Source of the DNA: an uncultured Desulfobacter sp.
GTDB lineage: Bacteria; Desulfobacterota; Desulfobacteria; Desulfobacterales; Desulfobacteraceae
Assembly: GCA_963677125.1 (NCBI GenBank)
Contig: OY781882.1
Span: 5,490,518 to 5,514,517, forward strand
Direction: 5' to 3'
Length of the DNA: 24,000 nt
The translations under genes were made by a program, and so were the position numbers. Numbering within the stretch: position 1 is the first letter of the stretch; each line of letters opens with the position of its first letter. Below are positions 1 through 23,959 of the stretch, piece after piece. The notes beneath the pieces were generated by a model. The model saw only the letters and a list, made by a program, of their open reading frames with translations, made no database searches and was not told where the DNA came from.

Positions 1-297
1 GCTTTTGTGTGAAAGCTCCCCAAGGGCAGTAAGAAAAATGACCGGTATCTCACGGGTGCGCTTTAACACTTTTAGCTGTTTACAGACCTGGTAGCCGTCT
101 ATACCCGGCATCATGATATCTAAAAGGATCAGGTCCGGCGGATCTTCAGCCGTCATTTCCAAGGCAGACTCTCCGTCTGTGGCGACTCTGATATCGTAGG
201 ATTCCCCTAAGATGTCCATCAGGAGGTCGATGTTTAATTTTGTATCATCCACTACCAGAATGACATCCTTTTCTTGCTTGTTTAAAAATTCAGTCAT
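1..297 (-). CDS. Response regulator receiver protein, 3'-truncated by the window edge (first 99 codons visible)
   Basis: Own reverse-complement translation from ATG 297-295 gives MTEFLNKQEKDVILVVDDTKLNIDLLMDILGESYDIRVATDGESALEMTAEDPPDLILLDIMMPGIDGYQVCKQLKVLKRTREIPVIFLTALGELSHKS. REC hallmarks are present: the VVDD acidic pair and the LLDIMMPGIDG phospho-acceptor Asp. It is a close paralog of the REC domain of the 5489..6601 regulator. The start overlaps the stop of the upstream kinase gene by 8 nt (ATGACTGA). It is absent from the ORF track because it is open at the edge. Confidence 0.85.
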   Translation of the reverse strand, partial: MTEFLNKQEKDVILVVDDTKLNIDLLMDILGESYDIRVATDGESALEMTAEDPPDLILLDIMMPGIDGYQVCKQLKVLKRTREIPVIFLTALGELSHKS

Positions 298-5431: not shown

Positions 5432-5488
5432 TACAGATTCCCTAAGGGCATTGGCGTGTAATTTTAACTATGGGTTGATCTGGGGTAT

Positions 5489-6601: not shown

Positions 6602-6628
6602 TGTGTTTCTCCTGGTTCTCGTATCTTT

Positions 6629-9478: not shown

Positions 9479-10077
9479 ACGCCGACCCTCAATACAATGC
9501 ATGATAGATCATCAGATCCTTTCCCAAGATTGGTGATGAAATTGTTGCAGATATCCTCGGCACGGCCCGTGGTGATGCCTGGGTAGGCATTGGGATCAAA
9601 GTGTTCTTTGATCCCGTCAGAGGTCATAACCAGAATATCTCCGGGCATCATCCGGGTTTCGGACTGGGCAGGGGAGGGCATCATATAGCCCACAATGCCG
9701 TCTTTTGTGACAAGGGTTACCTGGCTTGTTCCGAATAATCGCAGATGAATATTCCCCATTCCTGAATATTGAAGCATCCCCGTGTCTATATCGAGTCTGC
9801 AGGCGGCCGCCACGGCACCCCGGGTTCCCTTTAAACACTGATGCAGACCGTTGATAATTTCGGTCAACGGCTTTGAATAATTTTGGGCCAGGTACTCTTT
9901 TGAAAGCCGTGCCACTTGCGCCGCATGTTTTCCATGTCCGAGCACATCCACCAGGGCAAGGAAACAAAAATTGTCGTACGCTTTGACAAAGCCGATATCC
10001 CCACACTCGTCCGGCTCTCCGGTCAACGCTTTTTTTTCTATGTGAAAATCAATGATCTGCCCGTTTAGTCTCATCAA
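9475..10077 (-). CDS. rsbX: RsbX-like PP2C/SpoIIE-family serine phosphatase (stressosome feedback phosphatase type)
   Basis: At 200 aa it is the same size as B. subtilis RsbX. It is collinear with RsbX from memory: ECGDIGFVK...[14 protein letters not shown] versus CGDSFFMK...CAVADGLGSGSLA; [11 protein letters not shown]...[13 protein letters not shown] versus RGATASILKIN...TYCSVGNVRFIL; and a C-terminal DDLSCIVLR. It directly abuts the rsbT-like stop at 10078. Confidence 0.8.
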
Positions 10078-10500
10078 TTAATCCATCCATTTGATTGCTG
10101 TTATCTGAGTGCCCACACCGGGTGTCGATCGAATCTGAAAATCATCCATAATCCGCTTTACACTGGGCAGGCCGAGTCCAAGTCCGTTTCCGGAACTGTA
10201 GTTTTCTTTCATGGCCATTTTCATATTGTTTATGCCTGGACCCTGATCCTGGGCATTGACCTTAAACCCTATCTTGTCACCACGGTGAATGATGCTTAAG
10301 GTAATTTTTCCCTTTCGCGCATACCGGATAATATTGGTGGATAATTCTGAAACCGCTGAAGCAATCAAATACTGTGCTGTTTCTCCAAAATGCATTTCAG
10401 CTAAAATTTTTCTGGCACTGTACACGACCTGGGCGTTGTCCGAGGGCTCATATAAATCAAAGGTCACCCGTTCATCTATAAAATTCATGGTATTTATCAT
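10078..10500 (-). CDS. rsbT: RsbT-like serine protein kinase (GHKL/anti-sigma-regulatory-factor family)
   Basis: N-box SELSTNIIRYA, G1 DQGPGI, G2 GNGLGLGLPSVKRIMDDF, and a C-terminal GTQITAIKWMD that is nearly identical in pattern to B. subtilis RsbT (GTEIQAIKWLR). The ORF track start at 10554 would overlap rsbS by 28 nt. I prefer ATG 10500 (MINTMNFIDE), which has GGAAAGGG upstream. ATG 10488 is also possible. Confidence 0.85.
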   Translation of the reverse strand: MINTMNFIDERVTFDLYEPSDNAQVVYSARKILAEMHFGETAQYLIASAVSELSTNIIRYARKGKITLSIIHRGDKIGFKVNAQDQGPGINNMKMAMKENYSSGNGLGLGLPSVKRIMDDFQIRSTPGVGTQITAIKWMD

Positions 10501-10526
10501 CAAGTTCAGGCCCTTTCCGGCAATAT

Positions 10527-10904
10527 TTAATCCAACGCAAAGGTGGTTAACCACTTAAAGGCATCATCAATGTTTCTTGCGGTTATAATATCATCAAAGC
10601 CGGTATCCAGATCCACTAACGACGCGGCAACGCCTGGTCGAAACCCTGAAAAAACCGGGGTCGTACCCATCATGGCAATGGCCCTGGCTGCATTTTTCAA
10701 GAGAGCAAATTCGTTTGAATTCAGAATTGTCACGTCAGATAGGTCGATGATGACACCTTTTGCCCGTTTTCTTGTCAGCTGTTTTAGGAGCGCTTCCCTT
10801 ATCCTTAAAATGCTGTTTTCATCCGAGTAACGGGTTAAAGATGCAATCAGGCAATTGTTGACCTGATGAATTGTTGAACCGGATGCGTTCGATGCTTCAT
10901 TCAT
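10527..10904 (-). CDS. rsbS: RsbS-like single-domain STAS protein (stressosome scaffold)
   Basis: 125 aa. VNNCLIASL matches the RsbS N-terminal LYNCLLVSI. GVIIDLSDVTILNSNEFALL aligns to [20 protein letters not shown], so the phosphorylatable Ser (Ser63 here, Ser59 in B. subtilis) is retained. The start forms an ATGA overlap with the stop of the upstream rsbR-like gene. Confidence 0.85.
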   Translation of the reverse strand: MNEASNASGSTIHQVNNCLIASLTRYSDENSILRIREALLKQLTRKRAKGVIIDLSDVTILNSNEFALLKNAARAIAMMGTTPVFSGFRPGVAASLVDLDTGFDDIITARNIDDAFKWLTTFALD

Positions 10905-11713
10905 TCATTTGCACCCTTTTGTTTTACCTTTAACCCCATCAGCCTGAACGCATCTGAAAGTGCATCCTGAAGCGTTGAATTGGTGGCGATATCCCCAAGC
11001 TCGATACCTAACTGGACAAGGGTTTCGGCAACCGCCGGGGAAATGCCGGAGATAATGCAGCGGCATCCCATCAATTTCGTGGCTTTGGCGATTTTAATCA
11101 AATGATTGGCCACAGCCGTATCCACGGCCGCCACCCCCTGGATGTCCAGGATGATCACCTTTGCCGCGGTTTCCATGATTTTGGAGAGCATGGTATTCAT
11201 CATTTGCTGGGCCCGCAGGGAGTCCACCACCCCCACCACCGGAAGAATCACGACCCTGTCCCAAAGTTTGATGGCCGGTGTTGATATCTCCATGATGGTC
11301 CGGCTCTGCTCTTTGAGTTTTTTTTCCTGCCTGACCCGCTCTGTGATATCAAGAATATATTCCAGACCGCCCACAATGTTTCCGTCCTCATCTTTCATGG
11401 CAGCCGCGGTGTATTCAATGGGGATAAATCTGTCGTTCACTTTCATTTCATTGCGGGTGGTAAAGGACTGTCCCCCTTCCATGACCTGTTTCATCCGGCA
11501 CTCTTCAGTTCCGCAATGACGCGATTGAAAGACATCACGGCATGGCATCATTTTGATCTCTTGCCAGGATTTTCCAAGCATGTTAAGTCCGGCCCTGTTT
11601 ACGAAAATGACCCTCATCTCACGGTTAACCGCCATAATCGGGGTAGGGAGCTGCTGGAGGATGTCGACTGCCAACTCTCCATCAATTTGATCGATGTCCG
11701 GATTATTCATCAC
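10901..11713 (-). CDS. rsbR: RsbR-like stressosome sensor: N-terminal PAS domain + C-terminal STAS domain
   Basis: 270 aa. The PAS domain spans aa ~15-125, ending in EYILDITERV. The STAS region is EISTPAIKLWDRVVILPVVGVVDSLRAQQMM...ILDIQGVAAVDTAVANHL...ISGISPAVAETLVQLGIEL, collinear with the RsbRA C-terminus. Ser165 and Thr199 sit at the positions of the RsbRA phospho-sites T171 and T205. A GAAGGAGA SD precedes ATG 11713. Confidence 0.85.
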   Translation of the reverse strand: MMNNPDIDQIDGELAVDILQQLPTPIMAVNREMRVIFVNRAGLNMLGKSWQEIKMMPCRDVFQSRHCGTEECRMKQVMEGGQSFTTRNEMKVNDRFIPIEYTAAAMKDEDGNIVGGLEYILDITERVRQEKKLKEQSRTIMEISTPAIKLWDRVVILPVVGVVDSLRAQQMMNTMLSKIMETAAKVIILDIQGVAAVDTAVANHLIKIAKATKLMGCRCIISGISPAVAETLVQLGIELGDIATNSTLQDALSDAFRLMGLKVKQKGANE

Positions 11714-12216: not shown

Positions 12217-12951
12217 ATGACCAAAGATTTTAATCATTCAATTCTGATCGTTGATGATGAGGAAAAAATCGGAAAAGCACTTGAACGTCTGATCAAAAAG
12301 ACCGGTGCCCGTTCTTTTTACGCATCTTCGGGCTCCCAGGCTCTGGATTTCATCCAAACATCAGAAGAACCGCTCTCCATGATACTTTCGGACCAGAGGA
12401 TGCCGGGGATGGAAGGTACCCAGTTTTTGGAAAAGGCCAGGGCCATTACCCCGGATACCATTCGATTTCTGATTACCGGCTATGCAGATATCGATTCGGT
12501 TTCAGATGCGGTAAATCGCGGCGCGGTTCATCGGTTTATTACAAAGCCCTGGGACAATGATGATTTATTGGAGATGATTAAATCTGGGTTGCAATATTAC
12601 GAATTGGTTGTTGAGAACCGGAATTTATTTGCGCTGGCTAAAAAACAAAATATTCGCCTTTATAATTTGAGCCAGGAGCTCAAACAAAAGGCGGCAGTGC
12701 ATAAACGGGTGATTGTACGAAAAGAGAAGCAGATCGTTCAGCTGAAAAAACGATTGGCGAAAGGCATTGATGAGGCAGATTTTTTTGAGCAGATAGAAAA
12801 ATTGCTTGACGAAAATCAGATGCTTGAAAAAGATAGAATTGTGTTATGCTACTGGGCTGTAATCAAAGATTTTTTCCTGAGATTTAAAGATCTTGCTGCG
12901 CGTGACGGGTTTCTTATGCCCACAGAAACCGAACCGGACCACAAAGTGTAA
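12217..12951 (+). CDS. Response regulator: canonical REC domain + C-terminal coiled coil, no recognisable output domain
   Basis: 244 aa. REC motifs are ILIVDDEE, MILSDQRMPGMEG (Asp59), LITGY and FITKPWD, followed by about 110 aa of heptad-like K/E/L-rich sequence. An AAGGTG SD lies 6 nt upstream of the ATG. Confidence 0.9.
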   Translation: MTKDFNHSILIVDDEEKIGKALERLIKKTGARSFYASSGSQALDFIQTSEEPLSMILSDQRMPGMEGTQFLEKARAITPDTIRFLITGYADIDSVSDAVNRGAVHRFITKPWDNDDLLEMIKSGLQYYELVVENRNLFALAKKQNIRLYNLSQELKQKAAVHKRVIVRKEKQIVQLKKRLAKGIDEADFFEQIEKLLDENQMLEKDRIVLCYWAVIKDFFLRFKDLAARDGFLMPTETEPDHKV

Positions 12952-12995
12952 TTTGATTTTGCAGTTAAGGCATTTGAGAAAGACGGGTATTTTTT

Positions 12996-15494
12996 TTGCG
13001 TTCCAGAAGCAAAGGGGCCTTTATCATCGAAACTAAACAACAGGAAAACAAAATCCTGATAATCGACCCGCAGGGTATAATTGAAAAGAAAACCGGGCTG
13101 TTATCGGAAAAAGGATTTGAGGTGGAGTGTTTTAACTCTCCCGCCGACGGCCTGGCACGTTTGGCCCAGGAGTCAGCATTCCCATATTTTCTGATTATTG
13201 AGGGATGTGTTGAAATAGAAAATGGACAAAAAACGATCCTTGCAAGGGCCAAAGAAATATCACCGGACACCCAGCGACTCTTGGTCGGAGCGCCTTTCGC
13301 ACTGCCCTCTTTTGTTAATGCGATAAATTTTGCCGGGATTCATGCGTGTCTGCCTTTGCCCTTTACGGACGAAGACCTGCTTGTTCAGGTCAGACTGCGG
13401 CATGATGAATATCTGGCCGGCAGAAAAATAAAAAGCCTCCAGAAGACGATTCAACGCCAGAATAAGCAGTTGTTTCAGATCGCTGGAAATTTGAGAAAGA
13501 AAGAGACGCTGTATGCGGAGCAGATTCAACAAAAAGAAAAGGAAATCAGAGTTCTGGAATCCAGGCTCAAAAGCCTTTTCGGGGACAATGAATTAGAATC
13601 CGGGCCAAAGCTTAAAACCCTGTTGGAAAAAGAAAATATTAGTTTAAATGCATTGGCCTTCCGGCAGGCATTTGATGATTTAAAAAAACGCGTTAGAGAC
13701 ATCTTTTTAACCATTATTTCAAAAAGCGAACAGTCTGAGGCGTTGATGCTTTCAGAAAAAGAGTTTATTCATGCCCTGGCACAACATTCTGATCAATTGG
13801 ATGAAACCATTGATACCACGGAATACGAATCCCTTGCCGGTTTGCTGACCCCGGTGCTTTTGAATTTAATGATTTGGCGGGTTAATCGTGACCCGGAAGG
13901 TATTTCGGACGAAAAACAGCAAGATGTCCTAAAATATTTCAGCATCGATTTTTTAGATAACAGGACCCAGGCTTATATTCGGCTTAACAAAGATGCTCCG
14001 GAAGGGATGACGGTTTACATGATAGAACAGCTTCTTCATAAAAACGGGATTATTTTTGGACTCATCGAAGAATCGTCCATCGAAGAATGGCTTTATGGAG
14101 ATGCCAGAACGGGAGAAAAGCTGCTTATTGCTGAGGGAAAGCAGCCTGTTTCGCCAACCCAGGGAGAAGTTCACTATTATTTCCCAAGCAATTTCAGGCG
14201 TGCAGGCAGAATAAATCCGGATGGAAGCATAGATTACAGAGACAGGGGCGAAGTGCCCCATGTGGAAGCGGGTATTATGCTGGCCTCAAAGATATTCCCT
14301 AAGCCCGGGGAACCCGGTATAGATGTTAAAGGCATGGAAATACCGGTGCCGGAGCCTGTGGATCAGGCTTTTTCCGCAGGGCCGGGTACCCGGTATAATG
14401 AAGACAAGACTGAAATTTTTTCAACCATAGGAGGTCAACCCCACTTGGATGTTATGGGGGTTGTCTCTGTTAACAAAGAATTCAGGATAAAAGGTGATGT
14501 CGGATTTGAAACCGGCAATATTGATTTCAATGGTAATGTCATTGTGCCGGGTACGGTCAAAGAAGGTTTTAAGGTTAAGTGCGTTTCACTCACAGCCAGG
14601 GAAATTTGCGGCGCACAGGTCGATGTGTCAGGAGATTTGAACGTATCAATGGGCATTGTGGATACAGATCTTATCAATGTTAAAGGCAATATCCAGGCCA
14701 AATACATTCACAATTGTACCATAAATTCCTTTGGGGATTTGACGGTGCACAAAGAGATCGTTGATTCCACCATTTATTTGAGCGGGGCCTGCGATAATGA
14801 AAGGGGCGTCATTCTTAATTCGACCCTGTCGGCAAAGGGCGGGATTAAAGCCGGTGCTGTAGGTAATGAATCTGCCGCACCATCGATTCTGACTGTTGGG
14901 GTTGATGAGCATGTAATCCGATTGGAGGATAAAATAAAATCCAGACTTACAATGAACAGGGATACGATTCATGAGCTTTCATCGGAGATCAGTCAGATGA
15001 AAGAGGTGGACAAGTGGCTTCACGGCACCATAACCGAGAATGCCCACGTTCAGGATCGGTCACTAATAGAGATTCGGGAACTTGAGAACAAAAGGGCCGC
15101 TTTGGACGGAACAAAAGATGCCGCTGAATTAAAAAGTATTTCCGATGGGATTCAAAAATTGGAAAAAAAAGCGAAATATGCAGGGGAAAAAATTAATGAA
15201 TGGTTTGAACGTCAGGACCAGATACATCATGATATTTCAGCAAAAGAGCTTAAAATCGAGGGGTTGGAAAATTTAAACAGGCTGCTTGTTGAACAATTAG
15301 AAAATCTAGAACAGATTTCAAATAAGTCCGCGTCTGTACCTGTGCTGAATATATCAAAGCACATTCAGTCCAAAACAAAAATTAAGGCCCCCCATTCGTT
15401 TAAAATCGTGGACAGGTCCTGCGCTCGATGTGACATAAGGGAAAGGAGTAAGAATGAAGGCGGCATTGTCTATTATATAATGGATATCACTTAA
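12996..15494 (+). CDS. FapA/DUF342-family protein with N-terminal degenerate (pseudo-)receiver domain and coiled coils
   Basis: 832-aa ORF. The central region carries the DUF342/FapA signature: FSIDFLDNRTQAYIRLNKD..., PGEPGIDVKGMEIPV, and repetitive GDVGFETGNIDFNGNVIVPGTVKEGFKV...VSGDLNV...VKGNIQA segments, with a long C-terminal coiled coil. The N-terminal ~125 aa align to the upstream REC domain but lack the catalytic residues. No in-frame ATG is available. The only plausible start is TTG 12996-12998, because the frame opens after TGA 12975-12977. Confidence 0.8.
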   Translation: MRSRSKGAFIIETKQQENKILIIDPQGIIEKKTGLLSEKGFEVECFNSPADGLARLAQESAFPYFLIIEGCVEIENGQKTILARAKEISPDTQRLLVGAPFALPSFVNAINFAGIHACLPLPFTDEDLLVQVRLRHDEYLAGRKIKSLQKTIQRQNKQLFQIAGNLRKKETLYAEQIQQKEKEIRVLESRLKSLFGDNELESGPKLKTLLEKENISLNALAFRQAFDDLKKRVRDIFLTIISKSEQSEALMLSEKEFIHALAQHSDQLDETIDTTEYESLAGLLTPVLLNLMIWRVNRDPEGISDEKQQDVLKYFSIDFLDNRTQAYIRLNKDAPEGMTVYMIEQLLHKNGIIFGLIEESSIEEWLYGDARTGEKLLIAEGKQPVSPTQGEVHYYFPSNFRRAGRINPDGSIDYRDRGEVPHVEAGIMLASKIFPKPGEPGIDVKGMEIPVPEPVDQAFSAGPGTRYNEDKTEIFSTIGGQPHLDVMGVVSVNKEFRIKGDVGFETGNIDFNGNVIVPGTVKEGFKVKCVSLTAREICGAQVDVSGDLNVSMGIVDTDLINVKGNIQAKYIHNCTINSFGDLTVHKEIVDSTIYLSGACDNERGVILNSTLSAKGGIKAGAVGNESAAPSILTVGVDEHVIRLEDKIKSRLTMNRDTIHELSSEISQMKEVDKWLHGTITENAHVQDRSLIEIRELENKRAALDGTKDAAELKSISDGIQKLEKKAKYAGEKINEWFERQDQIHHDISAKELKIEGLENLNRLLVEQLENLEQISNKSASVPVLNISKHIQSKTKIKAPHSFKIVDRSCARCDIRERSKNEGGIVYYIMDIT

Positions 15495-15738: not shown

Positions 15739-16572
15739 TCAGGGACTGTCTTGATTTGATTCAAGTCCCTCCGGCAATGGAGTTACGGTCCGAATTGCAA
15801 AATGTCGGTCTTGAATTGTTGTTTTAAGTGCTCTAATACGGGCTTTACACTCGGGATGAGAGGCAAAATACGCCATGAGTCTTCCCGGATCATGGGCCGC
15901 CCCCAAGGCTTGGAAAAATTCGATGGCACCGCCGGCATGGCCATAGTAACAGACCAGGGTTTCCAGGGCCTGGGCGTCGGCCATGGCTTCCCGCTGCCTG
16001 GAATATCGGGCCTGGGTTAAATGGACACCCGGTGCCGTCAGTTGGGTGATGCTTGAACCGGACCCTGTCAAAAGTGCTGAAAGTGCTGTAAGTACAATGC
16101 CGCGGCCCATACCCCGAAGATGATCCCGATGTTTGAAATGTCCCAGTTCATGGGCCAGAACAAAGGCAATCCCGTTTTCCGAACGGATCATGTCAAAAAT
16201 GCCTGAAAACACCACAATGGTTCCTCCGGCAAGCGCCAGGGCATTGGCTGTGTCCGAGGGAATAACGATAATTTTCACAGGATAATCAACATCGCAGCAT
16301 TGTCGTAATTCATCCGTAAGATGCTGAAGCGAGGCCTGACCGCGTTGATCTTCCGGGGGGCCGAGGTTTAAAGGGATCTGGAACCGGGAAAAGATAGCAG
16401 CTTCCATTTCAGGCGAAATGCGGGCGACGGCCCAGTCCACCAGAAATCCGAGTATGAAATAGGCAAAAAGAAAAAAGGCAATTATGCCGGACAACAGCAC
16501 CAACGCCTCTTTGACCGGGCTGTCTTGGGAAATATTGTCGTTGCTTTGGGGCCGTAACGGCTTATAATCCAT
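15739..16572 (-). CDS. M48-family zinc metallopeptidase (HtpX/Ste24-like), membrane anchored
   Basis: 277 aa. N-terminal TM segment ALVLLSGIIAFFLFAYFILGFLV. HExxH motif in AHELGHFKHRDH. The downstream REAMADAQALE matches the M48 third-ligand/ExxAD region. The start overlaps the stop of the upstream gene (TGATG). Confidence 0.85.
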   Translation of the reverse strand: MDYKPLRPQSNDNISQDSPVKEALVLLSGIIAFFLFAYFILGFLVDWAVARISPEMEAAIFSRFQIPLNLGPPEDQRGQASLQHLTDELRQCCDVDYPVKIIVIPSDTANALALAGGTIVVFSGIFDMIRSENGIAFVLAHELGHFKHRDHLRGMGRGIVLTALSALLTGSGSSITQLTAPGVHLTQARYSRQREAMADAQALETLVCYYGHAGGAIEFFQALGAAHDPGRLMAYFASHPECKARIRALKTTIQDRHFAIRTVTPLPEGLESNQDSP

Positions 16573-17021
16573 CAGTTGTGTTCAAAATAAACAGCCGTGC
16601 CAAAGGCCAGGACCTCCACAGATCCTACCTGTTTTCTTTTGCCTTTGTAAATGGATGAGGTTTCCAGGCGCAGATTAATGATTTCATCTGCATCCTCGCA
16701 GGATTCATGCAGCCGCAGCAACGCTTCTCGCCGGGCCCGGTCCAACAGGGTCTCATACACGCGAACCTCTCCGCCGAAAAGATTGCGTAAGCCCGCAACA
16801 ATGCGTTTGAAATAATCCACGGAAATGACCACATTGCCGGAAACCAGTTCGCTTTTTTGGATGGCACGCGTTGAATCGCTGACCGTTTTATAGGTGCTGG
16901 CCGGCCGGGTCATCCAGAACTGTTCCCGTTCTTCAATGGACCGGTAGTGCTTTGATTCAGCCATGCGACCGAAAAAATAACCCAGCATGATCAAAACGAT
17001 AAAAATTATGAGTTGTTCCAT
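16572..17021 (-). CDS. Membrane-anchored YbjQ/UPF0145 (DUF74) family protein
   Basis: 149 aa. N-terminal TM segment MEQLIIFIVLIMLGYFFG. The YbjQ-like core is VISVDYFKRIVAGLRNLFGGEVRVYETLLDRARREALLRLHE...NLRLETSS...VLAFGTAVYF, paralogous to the upstream gene. Confidence 0.8.
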   Translation of the reverse strand: MEQLIIFIVLIMLGYFFGRMAESKHYRSIEEREQFWMTRPASTYKTVSDSTRAIQKSELVSGNVVISVDYFKRIVAGLRNLFGGEVRVYETLLDRARREALLRLHESCEDADEIINLRLETSSIYKGKRKQVGSVEVLAFGTAVYFEHN

Positions 17022-17024
17022 GGC

Positions 17025-17339
17025 TTACTCCACTGTAACGGCTGTACCGTAGACGTAAAGTTCTGCCGCTCCTGCCGTTACGGAAGAGGTTGAAAACCGG
17101 ACATTGACAACGGCATTGGCGCCCATCTGTGCGGCCTGGGAAAGCATCCGCTCAATGGCCTGTTCCCGGGATTCCTGCAAAAGCTCGGTGTACCCCTTAA
17201 GCTCGCCGCCGAAAATGTTCTTTAACGAGGCCATCAGATCCCGGCCTAAATGTTTTGCCCGCACCGTACTTCCTGAAACCACACCATGAAATGCAGTTGT
17301 TTTTTTACCTGGGATTTCTTCCGTGTTTGTCATTAACAT
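17025..17339 (-). CDS. ybjQ: YbjQ/UPF0145 (DUF74) family protein, soluble
   Basis: 104 aa with a classic YbjQ pattern: VSGSTVRAKHLGRDLMASLKNIFGGELKGYTELLQESREQAIERM...GANAVVNVRFSTSS...LYVYGTAVTVE. An AGGAGAAAAAAG SD precedes the ATG. There is a 3-nt gap to the next gene. Confidence 0.85.
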   Translation of the reverse strand: MLMTNTEEIPGKKTTAFHGVVSGSTVRAKHLGRDLMASLKNIFGGELKGYTELLQESREQAIERMLSQAAQMGANAVVNVRFSTSSVTAGAAELYVYGTAVTVE

Positions 17340-17395
17340 CTTTTTTCTCCTGGATTTTTTTTATCGCGTCTGAATTTTAAGAAATATGATGTTTT

Positions 17396-17424
17396 ATTTT
17401 GGATGGCCGTTCGCAAGATGTCAA
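17396..17424 (-). promoter_or_regulatory. Candidate sigma70-type promoter for the ybjQ-ybjQ(TM)-M48 operon
   Basis: The minus strand reads TTGACA (17424-17419), a 17-nt spacer, then CAAAAT (17401-17396). The -35 is a perfect match and the -10 matches 4/6. It lies about 55 nt upstream of ATG 17339. This is sequence-pattern evidence only. Confidence 0.3.
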
Positions 17425-17440
17425 GAAAAATAGGATCAGT

Positions 17441-18520
17441 TTAATTGTGTGACGCTGCGGCTGCAGCTCGTCGGGCACTGACCAGCGCCCCTTCAAGGTA
17501 GCCGCCGAATTGGCCCGCGGTCTCACTGCCTGCAAAGTGCAGTGTGTTGTTCCAGATGCTTGTTTTCCCGCCTGGCGGATAGAATTCAGGATGGTTGTGA
17601 CAGGATTTTTTGTCGTATTCCGTGGCCGTAAACGATTCTAAAGCCCAGTCCTGGTAATACAGTTCCAAGGGCTGTGCCGCATCGGGCCCGAACAGCTGCA
17701 CAAGCTGGGCAAGAATGGCCCGGGACATGGTGTTTTTGTCCTTCCTTCTCAGGGCTGGGATGCCGGCAAAGCCTGTCAACCCATAGGGGTGATCACCAGT
17801 GGCAGACCCGTCATGGATCTCCCCGAGGGGACCGCGTTGGCTGAATGCCTGTCCGGAAAGTCCCATGTTTCGCCAGGCTGCCTTATTATACAGGGCAAAA
17901 AATTTGGCATGCCCGGCCATCCAGGTGGATGCCTTAAGCATAGCCTGGGCCAGGGCATGGGACAGATCCGGTGTAAATAAAATGGACCGGGCCGCAAGTC
18001 GGGGCGGCAGGGCAAGAATGATGTTGGATGCGGTTAATTCACAACGAGGCGGCTGGTCAAGATGCCCCACCTTTACCCTGCACCCATTGTCCTGGCGCTG
18101 GATTTCACAAACCGGATGATCCAGGCGGATAACCTGTCGATTAATTTGCGCCAACAGACCTTTGATAAGGGCCATCATGCCGCCTTCAAGGCGGAAGGCC
18201 GGCGGTTCCATGGGGCAGCCGGACACGGTCTGGACATCGCCTGCTTTGGTTTCAAATAAGGCAAGGCCCTGTTCAAACTGGGGATATCTTTTTAATCCCA
18301 GATTTTTTACCAGGGCGGATACTTCCGGATTGACCATGGGCCAGAACCAAGACGGCCCCAAGTCGGCAAAAAAAGTTTGATGGTTTGGACATAAAATTCT
18401 ACCCCCGATTCTGGATCTGGCTTCCAGAACAAGAACGGATCTGTTTTGCCTCATAAGGTGGGCGGCGCAGGCAATACCGCTTAATCCTGCCCCAATAATT
18501 ATTGTATCAACGTGTTCCAT
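17441..18520 (-). CDS. FAD-dependent amine-oxidase-like oxidoreductase (flavin-containing amine oxidoreductase family)
   Basis: 359 aa. The N-terminal dinucleotide-binding motif IIIGAGLSGIACAAHL is followed by VLVLEARSRIGGRI, typical of amino-oxidase family proteins. C-terminal FAGSETA...GYLEGALVSARRAA. Confidence 0.8.
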   Translation of the reverse strand: MEHVDTIIIGAGLSGIACAAHLMRQNRSVLVLEARSRIGGRILCPNHQTFFADLGPSWFWPMVNPEVSALVKNLGLKRYPQFEQGLALFETKAGDVQTVSGCPMEPPAFRLEGGMMALIKGLLAQINRQVIRLDHPVCEIQRQDNGCRVKVGHLDQPPRCELTASNIILALPPRLAARSILFTPDLSHALAQAMLKASTWMAGHAKFFALYNKAAWRNMGLSGQAFSQRGPLGEIHDGSATGDHPYGLTGFAGIPALRRKDKNTMSRAILAQLVQLFGPDAAQPLELYYQDWALESFTATEYDKKSCHNHPEFYPPGGKTSIWNNTLHFAGSETAGQFGGYLEGALVSARRAAAAASHN

Positions 18521-18555
18521 AAATTTTTAAAATCCACTGGCGTGAACGAATACTG

Positions 18556-18576
18556 CCAAAGGTTATGCGCCTTTGG
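18556..18576. promoter_or_regulatory. Perfect 7-bp inverted repeat with 7-nt spacer in a divergent promoter region (candidate operator)
   Basis: CCAAAGG (18556-18562), TTATGCG, CCTTTGG (18570-18576). It lies between the divergently transcribed amine-oxidase-like gene and the 625-aa gene. Confidence 0.25.
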
Positions 18577-18786
18577 AATTGAAAAAGCAACGATTTTGAC
18601 AATGGATGTACCGGCATCAACATCAGTCCTGCCAATCCGAAACGCTTGGGTTAAATCATTTTTTCCTTTTTTCAACTCTGTTTTTTCAATTACTTATATG
18701 ATATGTTTTTTTGCTTTATCAGGATGGTAGTGATAAAAAGGTACGGCAAAAAGAATAAGGCTACTGCTTAAGGAGAATTACCCTAT

Positions 18787-20664
18787 ATGGCACGTTTAAA
18801 TGAGTTTGAACTGTCCGTTATAAAAGTCACTGACAGTCCATTAATATACAAGGCGCAGATCCCTTCGGAGTGCACATTTTTTCAGGATGTCCGACGCTAC
18901 CAGAGTATTGGGCCCCAGATGGAAATCCGTATTATTCCGGTAAATGGGTTGATCGAGCTTGACTCGGACATGGAGCCCGTATCCTTTAATAAATTAAGCG
19001 GGGCCGAACGTAAGGCCCTGGTGGATTACCTGACGGTTCGTGTTGCAAGAGGCGATAATATCGGGTATGCATGGGCCTTTTTTCGGCCTGCGGATAAAAA
19101 AAGGTGCCTTGTGGCCTACGGCGGCAACGTGGTCCATGATGATACCTATACGGGAAAAGAACGCGTTACGGCTTTGCTTTCGGCGCTTAAAAAGCAAAAA
19201 GGCATCAGCAAAATGAAACGGCGCTGGTTTCCCTGGCTTGCCGCCCTTCTGCTTATATCTCTGGTCGTTTTTGCCGGGGTCAAATATGGCAATCTGGTAA
19301 AAAAGATTCCCTTTATCAGCAGTATCGGCAAGGCTTCCGGTCCTGAAATGCAGTTTTATGAATCCGTATTTCCTGATTTGTATGCCTGGCTGTCCAAGGG
19401 CGAGCCGGAACAAAAAGATGTGGCGAAAAAGCTTTTGAAAACCGAATACATCTCATCCATGCTTCACACCATGACCCAGCCTGATTACCTTCAGGACGGA
19501 GAGGAGGGGATGGACCGGGGCAACAGGCTGATCCTGTTTGTCTATTTTAATTATAACAAACAGGTTGAAGAGTTGATCAGTTCCCGTCGGTTGATTCTGG
19601 CAGGTACGGAATTCATTCGTTTGTCACGGATTTATTCAACCCTGCAGTCCGGATATGCTTCCAATATTTTTTATTTCAAGGTTGGAGATTTGAACATCCG
19701 GCATACGGAGATCTCCAATTACATGAAACAGAACATGATCTCCTATCATGATTTTAAAAAGATCAGGGATGAAAATGCCTTTGCAGAACTGATGGCCAGT
19801 GACCGTATCAGTTATAAAATGAAGGGTTTTTTGGAAAATGTGTACACCTTTACCCCTCTTCGCATTGACACAAAACTTGATGGTAAATCCTGGTACCTGC
19901 TCACCCGGAATAACAGTGCCGGCAATATAGATTTTGCCGCCTTTTTCCACCAGGGCAGCGCTACACTGGTTCCCAAACGCATAGGCCATCTGGTGCTCGG
20001 AGACAAGGGCCTGCCTGCAGACATGGCCTGGTATGCATTGGATGACAGCCAGGCCGGGGGGCTTAAACTGTCGGACAGTTCCCAAACCTATTTTAGTACA
20101 GAGACCGGCCAGACCAACCAGCTCGGTATTATCCAGAAACGCATTGATAGCTTAAATCTTTCCAAGGTGTCCGAAGGCCGGGTGAAGGTCAGCGTTCACC
20201 GGGAATTGCTCATGGGGGATGCAAAGGGCAAATACGGCATCCAGACCAATGATCCCATCACAAGCCTGGTGCTGTCCAACCTGATCACCAAATCATCCTT
20301 TGAACAGGAGGCCAATGTATCCCTCAAGCGGGACCCCATCCAGTTTAATACCACATTGATTCAGCTCTCCAAAGACGACAGTTTTTCAGTTCAGTCTGTG
20401 ACCATCACGCCGGGCACCACCAATATCATCCGCTTGTTTGAGCCTTTGGACAGTTTTAAGGCAACGTTTAGGGACGGCACTTCCACCACCTTTGAAAAGG
20501 CCAGTGTCAATTTGTTCAACCCATTTACGTTTATGGTATCCAGGGACAGCATCGTTTTATGTTTCCGTCATGACATTACTGACATGACCATCGAGGCCAA
20601 CGGCACGGAGCTTCAAGTCGTAAAGGCCAAAGACGGAAACTATCAGATTGTGAAAATCCCTTAG
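18787..20664 (+). CDS. Hypothetical bitopic membrane protein (about 140-aa cytoplasmic N-domain, one TM, about 460-aa extracytoplasmic domain)
   Basis: 625-aa ORF with a strong SD (AAGGAGAA) 8 nt upstream of the ATG. A single hydrophobic helix, WFPWLAALLLISLVVFAGV (aa ~147-165), is preceded by the basic cluster KKQKGISKMKRR, which implies an N-in orientation. I recognise no family motif. Confidence 0.75.
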   Translation: MARLNEFELSVIKVTDSPLIYKAQIPSECTFFQDVRRYQSIGPQMEIRIIPVNGLIELDSDMEPVSFNKLSGAERKALVDYLTVRVARGDNIGYAWAFFRPADKKRCLVAYGGNVVHDDTYTGKERVTALLSALKKQKGISKMKRRWFPWLAALLLISLVVFAGVKYGNLVKKIPFISSIGKASGPEMQFYESVFPDLYAWLSKGEPEQKDVAKKLLKTEYISSMLHTMTQPDYLQDGEEGMDRGNRLILFVYFNYNKQVEELISSRRLILAGTEFIRLSRIYSTLQSGYASNIFYFKVGDLNIRHTEISNYMKQNMISYHDFKKIRDENAFAELMASDRISYKMKGFLENVYTFTPLRIDTKLDGKSWYLLTRNNSAGNIDFAAFFHQGSATLVPKRIGHLVLGDKGLPADMAWYALDDSQAGGLKLSDSSQTYFSTETGQTNQLGIIQKRIDSLNLSKVSEGRVKVSVHRELLMGDAKGKYGIQTNDPITSLVLSNLITKSSFEQEANVSLKRDPIQFNTTLIQLSKDDSFSVQSVTITPGTTNIIRLFEPLDSFKATFRDGTSTTFEKASVNLFNPFTFMVSRDSIVLCFRHDITDMTIEANGTELQVVKAKDGNYQIVKIP

Positions 20665-20712
20665 AAACCAATGTTTTGAAGACATCAGCATCAAGGAGTT
20701 TTATTTAATCAT

Positions 20713-22218
20713 ATGTTTGATAACACAGACCGGCTTTTAAAAATCCAGGACGGTATCAAGGCAGTTATTCAGCAACTTGCCGAGCTGCCGGCCCGGCAGG
20801 TAGACCGGGTGGAAAAGGTCATTGAACGCTGCCAAAGGTGCCTGAAAACGGCACCGGAAACGGATTTGCCCGTGTACATCCACATTACGGGTACGGATAA
20901 ATCCTTTAAGACCAGCTATCTTTTAGACCTGTTTGACAATGACGCGCTTCGTAGGCTGTTTGCGGTCAAGCAGCGAAACACCTCGGAGAATACGGCGGTT
21001 CCCTGTCTTGTGGAACCGGTATCCTGGACCGACGAGGTGGTGGTCAGCCAGATCAGCATTTCCACGGGGAATGTAATCCGGGACCGTTTAACCCAGGAGC
21101 AGTTTAACCGGCTGTATGATCTGTCTTCCGGGGCAGAGCCGGATGATTATCTCATCCGGGTGGCTGTGCCCGAAGACCAGACCACCATGACATTGCCGGC
21201 CATCGAATATCCGGGGATTAAAGAGGGTGCGGATGCCGTTGAATTCCAAAAGGAGCGCCATGAGAAGTTCCAGGCCAATATGCTGGATTGCATGGAGCGC
21301 TATCCCGGCATCCTGGTGGCCTGTTTTCAGCACAAAATCGCCATTCCTCCGGGGCATCCTTTAGATGCCATTCTTAAAAAATACCGTACGGTATTGGAAA
21401 CCACCCACGCATACCAGAAATTGCCGTTAATTTTGTCTTTGCAGGGGGACAGTGCCGTGGCAAGTTATTGCGGCAATACCAATGTGGAGCAGGACCTTGA
21501 AAGCGATTTCAAAAGCTATAAAGCCTTTGAAACTGTTGTGCAATTGATTAACCCGTGTAACAGTGAATACCCGGTGAATTTTATCTCCCCGGGTCCACAC
21601 GTGGACACCTGGATACGCAATTTGTCCCGGTATAAAGATTTGCGTGAAATCAAAGATGAGATCAAAAAGGATGGGGGCATTGCCTGGTCCCGTCAGATGC
21701 TCGGCGATCTGTGCACCACCTCAAATATCAGAGACGCCCTTGACAATATGTTTTTGATGCCCTGGATCAAGAAGGCTGAAAAGGTGCATACCCAGGCCGT
21801 TGATCTGATTTATGCAATCGAAAGCTATGATGAAGTGGCCGACGTCAAAGAGCGCATGCGCAAAGCCATTCTCAACGATACCTACCAGAGCCTGAGGCAT
21901 TTTTTTGACCGGGAGATCCAATACAATGAAGAGGGGATAATTGAGGACCACAGCACGTTCTGGAATGCCATATTTACCCAGTACCTCGACCAGTTTTTGG
22001 CCGATACCCCCAAAAGCCAGGCCATTGCCGATGTCCTGTGGAAAAACTTGCACCAGCGCCTGGATCCCGAGAACAAAGGCTTTTTGAGTGCAGCGGAAAA
22101 GGATTTGCCCCACATCATCATGAATATGGCGGAATTTTATGTTCCCAATATGCTGGTGCGCGGTGATTTCACCCTTGTAGAAAGACGTATTAAAGAGGAT
22201 GGCCAAGATGTGGTTTAA
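20713..22218 (+). CDS. Hypothetical protein; putative dynamin-like (BDLP/LeoA-type) GTPase-fold protein with degenerate nucleotide-binding motifs
   Basis: 501-aa ORF with an AAGGAG SD 14 nt upstream. The N-terminal half is collinear with bacterial dynamin-like GTPase domains, aligned from memory:
- VYIHITGTDKSFKTSYLLDLF versus LLVLGDMKRGKSTFLNALIG (G1).
- SENTAVPCLVEP versus NPCTAVLTVLRYG (switch 1).
- TLPAIEYPGIKEG versus GIEIVDSPGLNDT (G3).
- LPLILSLQGD versus VFFLVNAWD (G4).
The C-terminal half is helical and stalk-like. The functional call is an inference. Confidence 0.6.
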   Translation: MFDNTDRLLKIQDGIKAVIQQLAELPARQVDRVEKVIERCQRCLKTAPETDLPVYIHITGTDKSFKTSYLLDLFDNDALRRLFAVKQRNTSENTAVPCLVEPVSWTDEVVVSQISISTGNVIRDRLTQEQFNRLYDLSSGAEPDDYLIRVAVPEDQTTMTLPAIEYPGIKEGADAVEFQKERHEKFQANMLDCMERYPGILVACFQHKIAIPPGHPLDAILKKYRTVLETTHAYQKLPLILSLQGDSAVASYCGNTNVEQDLESDFKSYKAFETVVQLINPCNSEYPVNFISPGPHVDTWIRNLSRYKDLREIKDEIKKDGGIAWSRQMLGDLCTTSNIRDALDNMFLMPWIKKAEKVHTQAVDLIYAIESYDEVADVKERMRKAILNDTYQSLRHFFDREIQYNEEGIIEDHSTFWNAIFTQYLDQFLADTPKSQAIADVLWKNLHQRLDPENKGFLSAAEKDLPHIIMNMAEFYVPNMLVRGDFTLVERRIKEDGQDVV

Positions 22219-23959
22219 TCTGTTCAAACGAAAAAAAAAGGAAGTGGATCAGTTCCAGCTGGAACTGGAGGATGACGGCAAACTTTATTATGAAACCATT
22301 GCCGGACGGACCCCAAGGGACATTCAGAACCACGAGGAATATATTCTTTTTATTGATTTTGGATCTTACCGGACCAGTGTGTTGTGCTGGCCCTGCAGCT
22401 TTGGCCGGGATAAAATCACCGACTCATGGCAGTATGTGGTCCATGGGGACTCCGATGCCCAGGGGGGATTTCCTTCGGCTTTTATTAATCCGCCTTCCGG
22501 TGATGAGCGCGATTTTGCCTTTGTACCCAATATGGGTCAAGATCGTGTCAGTTCAAGCCAGATTGTTAAAAGCGCCAAATATGAATTTGCCTCCAAATTT
22601 GCCGCCTACCGGGGCGATGTGCCCCAGTTCAAGCTTTATATCAAAAAGATTCTTGAACACAGTTTCAGATACATTACCGAACCCAATAAGGATCGGCCCT
22701 GGAACGGTCCTGCCATTCCGGTGATTACGGAAATCCGGGTTACTGTGCCGGACCTATTCATTGAAAATTTGAGAAACGGATACCGGGAAAACATCTATTC
22801 CGTGTGCATGAACCTCTCCTCTGACCGGAAATGGAAATGGTTGTTCCCAAGTGATTTGAGACATTTGCGTAAAACGTTTGTCAATATTTCTGCCGATGAA
22901 AGCGGGGCGTGTGAGCTTTATTTTTTAAACCTGATCAAGCAGTTGCCCTTCTGGGATCTGTCCGGTCAAAAAGATCGGCTGCCCAATTTAAAAGAAGTGG
23001 ACTTTATCTTTTCCCAGGCAGCCCAGAGAGACCCTAATACCGAAAATCTTCAGTTTGTGGTGTGTCACATCGACATTGGCGGTCTGACCACCGATGTCAG
23101 CGTTCTTCTGGCCAATACTTTCCAGGACCCGGCCCTTGGCATCACCACCGCCCTGAACCGAAAGGAATCCTTTTCCGAAAGAAAGGCCGGGGAGTATTTT
23201 GCCGAAGCCTTTGCCCAGACCAGGTTGCCGGAAGAAACCGGTCCCTGGTGGGACAGTGACCGGTTCATCAGCAGGGATTTTTCACGATTTTTGGAATTGC
23301 TGTGCGGCAAACAGGCCGGCTTGCTTAATAAATGGCGCCAGGACAAAAATCTGTCCGGCATCTACTTTCTGATTTCAGGTCGTCCGACCAAATCCGAAAA
23401 GGTCAGAAAAGCCATTAAAAAGCATATCCTCAAGGAGTTTAATAAGGATGAACTGCTGCTTTTGCCCGAGCATTGCCTGTTCATGGCCGATTACCGGCAT
23501 GTGGGCAAAAACCAGGAAGGCGAGCGCTATGCCAAAAAAATCTCCCACTTTGAAAAACTGATTACCCTGCTCGGCAACGTGTATACCTTGTACGATGGGT
23601 ATGAAATTTGTGTGGATGACCACAAGTATTATATTTCCATGGACACGGATACCCGGACCACGGCCCAGATGGAGGTGCTGCCCGGACGGATCTATAATAT
23701 GGAAGAGTTTGAAAATTACAAGAAATCTGCAGAGCACAATAACGTCAATCATTTGGCTTTTACCCGGTTTCCGGAAGGGGAGAACAGCACCCGGTTTCTG
23801 ACGGTAAAAACCATTGCCCGGCAGAACGCTTTTCCCGTTATCCGGGTAGCCCAGACCAATGACGGCCAGGCATGGATTATGCCGTCGCTGATGATTACGA
23901 ACCTGGAGCAGAATGATCAGGCGTTTGATTTGTCATGGGGGGCCTTGTCACTGGAATAA
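22199..23959 (+). CDS. Hypothetical protein; non-canonical Hsp70/actin-fold (ASKHA) ATPase with C-terminal beta-rich extension
   Basis: 586-aa ORF that overlaps the upstream gene. Start is ATG 22199 or, better, ATG 22208, which has GAGG 9 nt upstream. All Hsp70 NBD motifs appear in order:
- ILFIDFGSYRTSV (phosphate-1, versus IGIDLGTTNS).
- ITEIRVTVPDLF (versus AVITVPAYF).
- ISADESGACELYF (versus INEPTAAALAY).
- VVCHIDIGGLTTDVSVL (phosphate-2, versus VYDLGGGTFDISI).
- IYFLISGRPTKSEKVRKAI (adenosine motif, versus VILVGGQTRMPMVQKKV). Confidence 0.7.
   Translation: MAKMWFNLFKRKKKEVDQFQLELEDDGKLYYETIAGRTPRDIQNHEEYILFIDFGSYRTSVLCWPCSFGRDKITDSWQYVVHGDSDAQGGFPSAFINPPSGDERDFAFVPNMGQDRVSSSQIVKSAKYEFASKFAAYRGDVPQFKLYIKKILEHSFRYITEPNKDRPWNGPAIPVITEIRVTVPDLFIENLRNGYRENIYSVCMNLSSDRKWKWLFPSDLRHLRKTFVNISADESGACELYFLNLIKQLPFWDLSGQKDRLPNLKEVDFIFSQAAQRDPNTENLQFVVCHIDIGGLTTDVSVLLANTFQDPALGITTALNRKESFSERKAGEYFAEAFAQTRLPEETGPWWDSDRFISRDFSRFLELLCGKQAGLLNKWRQDKNLSGIYFLISGRPTKSEKVRKAIKKHILKEFNKDELLLLPEHCLFMADYRHVGKNQEGERYAKKISHFEKLITLLGNVYTLYDGYEICVDDHKYYISMDTDTRTTAQMEVLPGRIYNMEEFENYKKSAEHNNVNHLAFTRFPEGENSTRFLTVKTIARQNAFPVIRVAQTNDGQAWIMPSLMITNLEQNDQAFDLSWGALSLE

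Follow-up and report, generated by a model that had tools for sequence, protein, structure and literature searches.

What kind of machine combines a membrane-spanning protein with a dynamin-like protein and an Hsp70-like ATPase? This question is raised by three co-directional open reading frames (ORFs) of 625, 501 and 586 amino acids (aa), here called genes 1, 2 and 3, which span positions 18787-23959 on the plus strand of a 24,000-nucleotide stretch of DNA from an uncultured Desulfobacter sp. (the window, meaning the whole stretch that was analysed). With confidence a little better than even, we read the three genes as a compact, rearranged and deeply divergent SrfABC-like system, that is, a membrane-anchored envelope machine with two nucleoside triphosphatases (NTPases). 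Among the three correspondences that this reading entails, only that of gene 3 with SrfB was detected in the sequences; those of gene 1 with SrfA and of gene 2 with SrfC we infer.

Gene calls and coding evidence

Gene 1 (18787..20664) is preceded by a Shine-Dalgarno sequence, AAGGAGA (18770..18776, plus strand), which was read directly and is invariant among aligned relatives. A spacer of 48 nucleotides (nt) separates gene 1 from gene 2 (20713..22218, plus strand), and AAGGAG lies 14 nt 5' of the gene 2 ATG. Gene 2 overlaps gene 3 by 20 nt if the latter starts at the ATG at 22199, or by 11 nt if it starts at the ATG at 22208. Because gene 3 homologs begin with MxFNxFKRKK and GAGG is positioned 9 nt 5' of ATG 22208, the true start of gene 3 is probably 22208, which gives a protein of 583 aa (22208..23959, plus strand) instead of 586 aa. 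Genes 2 and 3 are translationally coupled within one operon. The ORFs, the ribosome-binding sequence, the gap and the range of the overlap were all found as described in an earlier note on this DNA.

Each gene has dozens of homologs, down to 27-35% identity, and homologs of the module genes were found at 27-99% identity in more than 70 loci. Against three relatives, dN/dS was 0.11-0.21 for gene 1, 0.08-0.13 for gene 2 and 0.04-0.10 for gene 3; these values are approximate, as dS was above 1.2 and near saturation. The alignments point to strong purifying selection on all three genes. The many diverged homologs together with the low dN/dS indicate that the three ORFs are real genes and not chance reading frames. 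None of the three proteins had a significant match in Pfam, NCBIfam, PADLOC or PHROGs, and PDB sequence searches (phmmer and hmmsearch, with single sequences and family profiles) returned nothing significant, in agreement with the remark of the earlier note that none belongs to an obvious named family.

Gene 3 and its relation to SrfB

AlphaFold2 models of genes 2 and 3 were built on family alignments. When the model of gene 3 (predicted local distance difference test (pLDDT) 83.1, predicted template modelling score (pTM) 0.85) was compared with PDB structures by Foldseek, the top 50 matches were all Hsp70 or Hsp110 proteins (DnaK, BiP, Sse1, Hsc70), with E values of 3e-11 to 1e-7, probability 1.0 and about 12% identity. 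The model supports an Hsp70-type actin-fold nucleotide-binding domain (NBD), and gene 3 would encode an ASKHA ATPase. Its motifs can be set beside those of Hsp70 and of SrfB. Phosphate-1 is D53-F-G-S-Y-R-T59 (22355..22375), with D, G, R and T invariant (SrfB, DVGNSRT). Connect-1 is D233-E-S-G-A (22895..22909), the counterpart of Hsp70 NEPTAA and SrfB DEA[ST]x. Phosphate-2, D292-IGGLTT-D299 (23072..23095), is invariant and aligns with DnaK DLGGGTFD and SrfB DIGGGTTD, and the adenosine motif is S393-G-R-P-T397 (23375..23389), with G, R and P invariant (SrfB, [ST]GRPS). All phosphate and adenosine motifs are kept intact. The C-terminal part of about 150 aa is predicted to be beta-rich.

The Pfam HSP70 model (PF00012) matched none of 39 gene 3 family members. 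A gene 3 profile searched with hmmsearch against 1.84 billion representatives found 12 proteins only, none of them Hsp70; these were six full-length 50%-identity clusters plus fragments. Judged by such searches, the gene 3 family is tiny and stands isolated in sequence space. The link to SrfB was seen when family profiles were used. The Pfam SrfB model (PF07520) was weakly matched by 5 of the 39 family members, and no other ASKHA family was matched; the best member scored 15.7 bits (E=0.004, over 37 residues) and did not reach the gathering score of 27.1 bits, and the gene 3 protein of the window itself had no PF07520 match. Profiles of SrfA, SrfB and SrfC were obtained from annotated srf loci on plasmids, which were reached by using a vWA protein from a deep-branching relative of the module (L001, see below) as bait. 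In hhalign, the gene 3 family aligned with SrfB with P=1.2e-4 and 2e-4 over 141-164 colinear core columns, and the deep-branching gene 3 subfamily aligned with a 6-sequence SrfB profile at 92.2% (P=5.9e-7, 170 columns). As controls, gene 3 against DnaK gave 2.8% (with a DnaK sequence entered by hand), and cross-family pairs gave no more than 0.4%. A home-built SrfB hidden Markov model (HMM) was selective for the gene 3 family, with the phosphate-2 and adenosine segments colinear, and both families have the signatures DxG..RT, DIGG[LG]TTD and [ST]GRP[ST]. Judged from these profiles, gene 3 is a remote homolog of SrfB, about half its size.

As far as profile evidence tells, environmental Desulfobacteraceae have a cryptic SrfABC relative that is too divergent for COG and Pfam to detect. 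In the survey of Campbell et al. (2013), srfB and srfC were confined to host-associated Deltaproteobacteria, and no environmental genome had them. The literature that we searched for SrfB or SrfC with Hsp70, dynamin, ASKHA, P-loop or GTPase gave no account of the fold of SrfB or SrfC.

The N-terminal peptide of gene 3, MWFNLFKRKKK (22208..22240), is hydrophobic-basic and possibly membrane-targeting. The pattern M[LFI]FN[FL]FKRKK is kept in the Desulfobacteraceae clade and absent from deep-branching homologs, and the peptide has low pLDDT in the model. It might add direct membrane affinity to gene 3.

Gene 2, a dynamin-like protein with unusual G motifs

In the model of gene 2 (pLDDT 84.7, pTM 0.72), two helices at the N-terminus precede a G domain, and a helical bundle forms the C-terminal part. 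Its top Foldseek matches were MFN1/2, IniA, MxB, Drp1, dynamin, Cj-DLP1/2 and BDLP (E 4e-9 to 1e-6, probability 1.0), which supports a dynamin-like fold composed of a large G domain and a helical bundle. The predicted protein is soluble, with neither a paddle nor a transmembrane (TM) element and with no hydrophobic segment. Pfam Dynamin_N (PF00350) gave no match at E <=1 to the window protein or to 14 diverse gene 2 homologs.

The variant P-loop G60-TDKS-F65-K66-T67-S68-Y69 (20890..20919) follows the family pattern G-x4-[FLYM]-K-[TS]-S-Y, of which G60, K66, S68 and Y69 are invariant down to 27% identity. Position 65 is always hydrophobic and never Gly, and the canonical G1 motif GxxxxGK[ST] was not found, its second Gly being absent from more than 50 homologs. 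Switches I and II were assigned by position and fold, not by structure superposition. The putative switch I, E92-x-T94 (20986..20994), is invariant in all homologs. E165-Y-P-G168 (21205..21216) is a putative variant of switch II (G3), in which [ED]165-x-P-G168 is conserved, with Glu in all homologs but one deep one that has Asp. The G4 motif [NT]KxD is absent: the strand at 199-205 is followed by QHKI, which has no Asp, and K208 varies among homologs. His215, which is invariant, comes next instead of G4, and the HPxD-like stretch H215-P-L-D218 occupies the expected G4 position. A J-domain-like HPxD motif at this stretch was considered and dropped, as only the His is invariant in deep homologs.

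Motifs of dynamin type can be read in the SrfC consensus, namely GxSQAGKS at about residues 62-69, ESTGLVTRF, DFPG and LTxFD, and the SrfC P-loop is found at the same N-terminal position as that of gene 2. Searched against PDB, the SrfC P-loop region had weak matches to GBP1/2/5 (E 0.4-1). These motifs suggest that SrfC is a dynamin-superfamily GTPase. An hhalign alignment of gene 2 K66-P102 with SrfC 358-395 (1-3%) was judged spurious, the P-loop of SrfC being at 62-69.

Gene 1, a bitopic membrane protein

Gene 1 has one TM segment, at about aa 147-170 (19225..19296), with the basic cluster KMKRR just before it; this is the only Kyte-Doolittle window above 1.6 in all three proteins. No signal peptide was found in gene 1. 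Because the basic cluster precedes the TM segment, the N-terminus is probably cytoplasmic. The topology would then resemble that of SrfA, with a predicted cytoplasmic N-terminal domain (aa 1-146, 18787..19224) and a predicted periplasmic C-terminal domain of about 455 aa (19297..20661). The N-domain has motifs kept in the family (FxDVRRY, RGDN and GxN), and the C-domain has many conserved aromatic residues. The C-domain had no Pfam or PDB profile match, and none of 96 gene 1 homologs had a Pfam domain. The bitopic nature of gene 1, the dynamin-like nature of gene 2 with its degenerate motifs and the Hsp70/ASKHA-like nature of gene 3 had all been proposed from the sequence before, and the single TM segment, the Foldseek matches and the order of the gene 3 motifs bear these proposals out.

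According to a preprint of September 2026 (doi 10.64898/2026.09.18.752743), SrfA is bitopic, a TM helix joining a cytoplasmic domain at its N-terminus to a periplasmic C-domain, and an AlphaFold 3 (AF3) model presents SrfA as a platform binding SrfB and then SrfC. In SrfA-family proteins the N-terminal domain is kinase-like and the C-terminal one lipocalin-like with four Cys. We found one TM segment at about residue 204 of 482 in Klebsiella SrfA. By analogy with the published AF3 model of SrfABC, the N-domain of gene 1 is a candidate docking site for genes 2 and 3.

Accessory genes downstream of the trio in a deep-branching relative

As neighbours of srfABC, the same preprint reported vWA proteins, a Lol-like ABC transporter and a SUMF1/FGE enzyme. 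In L001, a locus with a deep-branching trio, the downstream cassette was like that after srfABC. Positions 11787-21719 of L001 contain a 1228-aa protein, a vWA/TssR-like protein, an ABC ATPase and an FGE-sulfatase-like gene, and also overlapping genes of 396 aa and 218 aa that may be a split FtsX/LolE-like permease. The vWA protein of L001 is homologous to the srf-linked vWA protein (E=6e-10), and these downstream genes are the TagRST-like cassette that accompanies srfABC. The 1228-aa protein had no Pfam match and, by tblastn, no match among plasmids.

Two further plasmid loci were noticed. In L078 (Sagittula stellata plasmid NZ_CP155730.1, 313055-328697), a SUMF1 enzyme, hypothetical proteins of 1068 aa and 873 aa (the latter vWA-like), an ABC ATPase, further hypothetical proteins and a MotA/TolQ/ExbB protein were present, with no annotated SrfB or SrfC; this may be a variant accessory cassette with different partners. 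In L084 (Rahnella aceris plasmid, 17008-19270), an HscC-type Hsp70 and a J-domain protein were located about 3 kb 3' of srfABC, which may be coincidence.

Conservation and inheritance of the module

Module loci came from three sources: GTDB species representatives searched with gene 3, metagenomes searched with gene 2, and exact look-ups. Gene 2 was upstream of gene 3 in 65 of the 65 loci with room for it, adjacent in 63, and gene 3 was downstream of gene 2 in 58 of 58. Gene 1 was upstream of gene 2 in 56 of 61 loci, and the five exceptions were all metagenome-assembled genomes (MAGs) of Desulfamplus (L024, L026, L028, L029 and L036), with a hybrid histidine kinase or RNase G before gene 2. 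The order bitopic, dynamin-like, ASKHA was found in more than 70 related loci, deep-branching ones included. The three-gene module put forward in the earlier note is conserved and self-contained. Conservation decreased from gene 3 through gene 2 to gene 1 (for example 77/63/55% and 35/30/22%). Downstream of gene 3 in relatives, no gene was kept between genera and the next gene was often on the opposite strand. Because nothing downstream is conserved between genera, the operon ends at gene 3 and the edge of the window hides no component; the suggestion that further components may follow was not borne out.

Some loci showed local peculiarities. Two had an insertion of about 2 kb between genes 2 and 3. 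In L028, an uncultured Desulfobacterales MAG, a DpnII-like endonuclease and an N6/N4 DNA methyltransferase at 8031-9956 interrupt the otherwise universal adjacency with both genes retained, and in L023 the gap runs from about 7894 to 10001. Before gene 2, L026 has a PAS/HisKA/REC/Hpt hybrid kinase that overlaps the gene 2 start, and L028 has RNase G. The Desulfamplus gene 1 ortholog stands alone among metabolic genes (carboxylase, CbiX), for example at L053:8001-9947.

The module was found in 46 species-level genomes, all Desulfobacteraceae-type and with one copy each, from Desulfobacter, Desulfobacula, Desulfospira, Desulfocicer, Desulfamplus and 'Desulfobacterium' MAGs. These hosts are free-living marine or sediment sulfate reducers, and the sequence identity of the module tracks genus. 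A few deep-branching modules (30-47% identity) came from metagenomes without known taxonomy. No copies were found on IMG/VR viral contigs or PLSDB plasmids. In PADLOC-DB 2.0 the three proteins had no match, and 14 gene 2 homologs had only scattered single chance matches. The single copy, the identity that tracks genus, the lack of phage and plasmid copies and the signalling and housekeeping neighbours mark a cellular function that is under constraint and passed on vertically, as opposed to a defence island. One typical Desulfobacteraceae-type locus (L040, CAXXSO010000075.1; gene 3 identity 72%, layout as in 'Desulfobacterium' MAGs) came from a MAG labelled 'uncultured Cohaesibacter sp.' (Alphaproteobacteria), which probably reflects faulty binning or labelling instead of horizontal transfer.

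A proposed mechanism and its alternatives

In the SrfABC-like reading, gene 1 would act as SrfA does, as a bitopic inner-membrane platform with a cytoplasmic N-domain of about 145 aa and a periplasmic domain of about 455 aa. Gene 3 would take the SrfB role as an Hsp70-type ATPase, and gene 2 the SrfC role as a dynamin-superfamily NTPase cut to a G domain and one helical bundle, itself without a membrane-binding element and with a non-canonical P-loop. Gene 1 would recruit the gene 2/gene 3 pair, co-translated stoichiometrically, to the inner membrane. Nucleotide-dependent self-association of gene 2 might then deform or tether the membrane, or transmit force to the periplasmic domain of gene 1, and the gene 3 ATPase would load, remodel or disassemble the gene 2 assembly. 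The machine would serve the envelope, in housekeeping or under stress, for instance through membrane repair, vesiculation or trans-envelope coupling, instead of serving defence or attack on a host. Complex formation and membrane remodelling are proposed for the three gene products, and it is plausible that gene 1 is an anchor or sensor and that the Hsp70-like protein recycles the dynamin-like one. Since these sulfate reducers are free-living, toxicity aimed at a host is less plausible than a role in the envelope.

Several observations weigh against this reading. Gene 2 profiles aligned with SrfC in hhalign at 0.7-3% and in the wrong region, and the SrfC HMM gave E >=1 against the gene 2 family; the dynamin nature of SrfC is itself read from motifs only. 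Between gene 1 and SrfA, profiles had no similarity beyond the TM segment, domain-restricted hhalign of the N- and C-domains found nothing, and gene 1 has no conserved four-Cys pattern as in the SrfA C-domain. The gene order here is A-like, C-like, B-like, whereas it is A-B-C in srf loci, and genes 3 and 2 are about half the size of SrfB and SrfC. The vWA/ABC/FGE cassette was found in one related locus only (L001) and is absent from the clade of the window; nor do all srf loci have it. Some Desulfamplus genomes have gene 1 unlinked to genes 2 and 3, so its partnership is not obligatory at the DNA level. Because a bulky hydrophobic residue replaces the near-universal P-loop Gly and G4 is absent, gene 2 may bind nucleotide poorly or be a pseudo-NTPase.

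An independent, convergent dynamin/Hsp70 membrane module, with gene 3 and SrfB merely belonging to the same ASKHA subfamily, would suit the gene order and sizes unlike those of SrfABC and the lack of detectable similarity in the pairs gene 2/SrfC and gene 1/SrfA. Such a module would still serve membrane remodelling or repair, like BDLP, DynA or IniA with a chaperone-like partner, and its order of dynamin-like then Hsp70-like gene is that of the cyanobacterial pairs compared below. We consider convergence unlikely, as gene 3 aligns with SrfB specifically and colinearly, gene 1 and SrfA are both bitopic, and the accessory cassette recurs downstream of one family member. In a further alternative, the periplasmic domain of gene 1 would sense an envelope cue and the two NTPases would be a cytoplasmic timer or switch without any remodelling, after the model of TagQRST-PpkA control of the type VI secretion system. 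The TagR/S/T-like genes linked to srf loci point this way, as do a degenerate P-loop and missing G4 fitting for a regulatory pseudo-GTPase and the hybrid histidine kinase that directly precedes and overlaps gene 2 in some Desulfamplus loci. The three proteins have no output domain (kinase, DNA-binding or cyclase), however, and dynamin-like and Hsp70-like folds are mechanochemical and not typical switches, so that a pure signalling switch seems quite improbable.

The earlier note had also raised a role in defence. Some bacterial dynamin-like proteins (DLPs) protect against phage, and the module could resemble DynA or Eleos/LeoABC and be an anti-phage or abortive-infection system centred on such a protein, in which the Hsp70-like ATPase would sense or regulate. 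Canonical srfABC is frequently plasmid-borne and frequently has toxin-antitoxin genes beside it, a restriction-modification pair sits between genes 2 and 3 in L028, and a DEAD/HNH helicase and an RNase H-like gene lie upstream in L003. Against this, no member matched PADLOC, no copy was found on viral contigs or plasmids, and the neighbours in the window are signalling and housekeeping genes, none of them defence genes. There is one copy per genome, inherited vertically with identity that tracks taxonomy across Desulfobacter, Desulfobacula, Desulfospira, Desulfocicer and Desulfamplus, and the very low dN/dS, of gene 3 especially, is atypical of defence genes. We give a defence function poor chances. 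Poorer still are those of a tripartite secreted toxin, as claimed for Xenorhabdus SrfABC. It would draw on the remote relation of gene 3 to SrfB and on the published cytotoxicity of SrfABC when expressed or injected (PMC6950479), but the hosts here are free-living marine or sediment sulfate reducers, gene 1 is membrane-anchored, genes 2 and 3 are without signal peptides or hydrophobic segments, and their predicted folds are those of nucleotide hydrolases typical of cytoplasmic machines. The 'secreted effector' label of SrfABC is itself questioned in the 2026 preprint (doi 10.64898/2026.09.18.752743).

Upstream region and neighbouring genes

A block of about 90 nt upstream of gene 1 (18660..18750, plus strand) is near-invariant across Desulfobacter-clade loci, with the remaining intergenic sequence diverged, and may be a promoter, an operator or a 5' leader. 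An Rfam search of this block found no match and no RNA element, and no convincing sigma-70 or sigma-54 consensus was seen in the leader region. A sigma-54 promoter candidate at about 18577 (TGGAAT-N5-AAGCA) was dropped because the -12 GC is not kept in L002, L008 and L009. Scans for sigma-70 promoters and terminators scored no better than on shuffled sequence.

The module has signalling and housekeeping genes as neighbours in the window. A dense signalling cluster lies on the minus strand at 290-11713, with a 1713-aa SBP_bac_3/PAS/HisKA/HATPase/REC/Hpt hybrid kinase, a REC-HD protein, a 957-aa hybrid kinase and a partner-switching set (SpoIIE phosphatase, anti-sigma-type HATPase_c_2 kinase, STAS and PAS-STAS proteins). 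On the plus strand at 12217-15494, a response regulator is followed by an 832-aa FapA-family protein (FapA_N and beta-solenoid), which has a long N-terminal extension and a TTG start and stands beside the module only in Desulfobacter. Two tandem YbjQ-family genes, the first with an N-terminal hydrophobic extension, and then an M48 peptidase gene occupy 15739-17339 on the minus strand. The amine oxidase, YbjQ, M48 peptidase and FapA flanks are kept within Desulfobacter only.

Implications

For 25 years, annotations have called SrfABC a 'virulence factor' or a 'toxin' without a mechanism. Although not categorically new, the module gives SrfABC-type systems a concrete frame for their mechanism and, being minimal, under constraint and at home in non-pathogens, makes the SrfABC question testable. 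With its high-confidence models, it offers a small structural handle on SrfABC, with an SrfB-like subunit of Hsp70 fold, a dynamin-like partner and a bitopic platform. Because the operon is constrained and vertically inherited in non-pathogenic sulfate reducers, and because of its predicted folds, an ancestral role in envelope cell biology, not in attack on hosts, can be argued.

We suggest tentatively, and with clearly less than even confidence, that the module and SrfABC together form an unrecognised and widespread class of envelope machines made of a bitopic platform, a dynamin-superfamily NTPase and an Hsp70-fold ATPase, of which the Desulfobacteraceae version would be the minimal core, in free-living bacteria. 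If this is true, the 'virulence factor' SrfABC would be a membrane-remodelling or vesiculation engine, gene 2, with its Gly-less P-loop and no G4, would be a non-canonical or pseudo-NTPase driven by its Hsp70-like partner, and the whole would parallel, in prokaryotes, the cycles of coats and dynamin that Hsc70 assists. The pairing of dynamin and Hsp70, so far noted in passing in cyanobacteria, would join the short list of bacterial membrane-remodelling systems. The locus also provides three protein families matched by no Pfam or NCBIfam model, and, as a natural experiment, it may show whether a dynamin G domain functions when its P-loop lacks the Gly.

Comparison with known systems

The author of the earlier note knew of no described system with this composition. 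Two precedents were found. Jilly et al. (2018; PMC5827413) described cyanobacterial 'chaperone-clade' bacterial dynamin-like proteins (BDLPs) with a DnaK-domain gene downstream, as genomic context only and uncharacterised. In the literature that we searched, this is the only other published pairing of a DLP with an Hsp70 that we found. As in the module, a dynamin-like gene is directly followed by an Hsp70-type gene. The cyanobacterial pair, which we compared by its description, is however recognisable by Pfam Dynamin_N and DnaK, neither of which the window proteins match; its BDLPs have the canonical extended P-loop GxxxxGKS/TxL/INALL/I, unlike gene 2, and no bitopic partner was reported.

Gene 2 has its predicted fold in common with bacterial DLPs (NosDLP/BDLP, DynA, Cj-DLP1/2, IniA/IniC and LeoABC) and mitofusins. 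It is far shorter than the bacterial DLPs, at 501 aa, and differs from them in having no paddle or TM element, a G-x4-hydrophobic-K-[TS] P-loop, an ExxG switch II, no [NT]KxD and no Pfam Dynamin_N match. Eleos (LeoA/LeoBC) likewise contains a dynamin-like protein, and LeoA is a short soluble DLP. The module proteins differ from Eleos and other anti-phage DLP systems in matching no PADLOC model and in a genomic behaviour that is not defence-like. With the Hsp70 family (DnaK, HscA, HscC, BiP and Hsp110), gene 3 has in common the predicted NBD fold and the phosphate-1, connect, phosphate-2 and adenosine motifs, all present in order. It differs from them in identity, which is about 12%, and in its adenosine motif, SGRPT where Hsp70 has GG[SQ]TR. 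Unlike Hsp70 systems, the operon has no J-domain or nucleotide-exchange partner.

The second precedent is SrfABC (SsrB-regulated factors; PF07520, COG4457/COG4458), which has the same parts list, with gene 3 a remote homolog of SrfB. Its hosts are Alpha-, Beta- and Gammaproteobacteria and host-associated Desulfovibrionaceae and Desulfobulbus. The products measure 625/501/583 aa here against about 450-480/990-1040/790-900 aa in srf loci; SrfC has canonical dynamin-type G1-G4 motifs, whereas the P-loop of gene 2 is degenerate and G4 is absent; and srfABC is often plasmid- or island-borne, whereas the module is chromosomal and vertically inherited in free-living hosts. Both are three-gene operons whose first product is bitopic, with a cytoplasmic N-domain and a periplasmic C-domain as predicted for gene 1. 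Both have an ASKHA partner, in SrfABC the one to which gene 3 is homologous, and in both the other partner is a P-loop protein that begins with a helical lead-in, has its P-loop at about residues 60-80 and carries a [DE]-aromatic-P-G motif.

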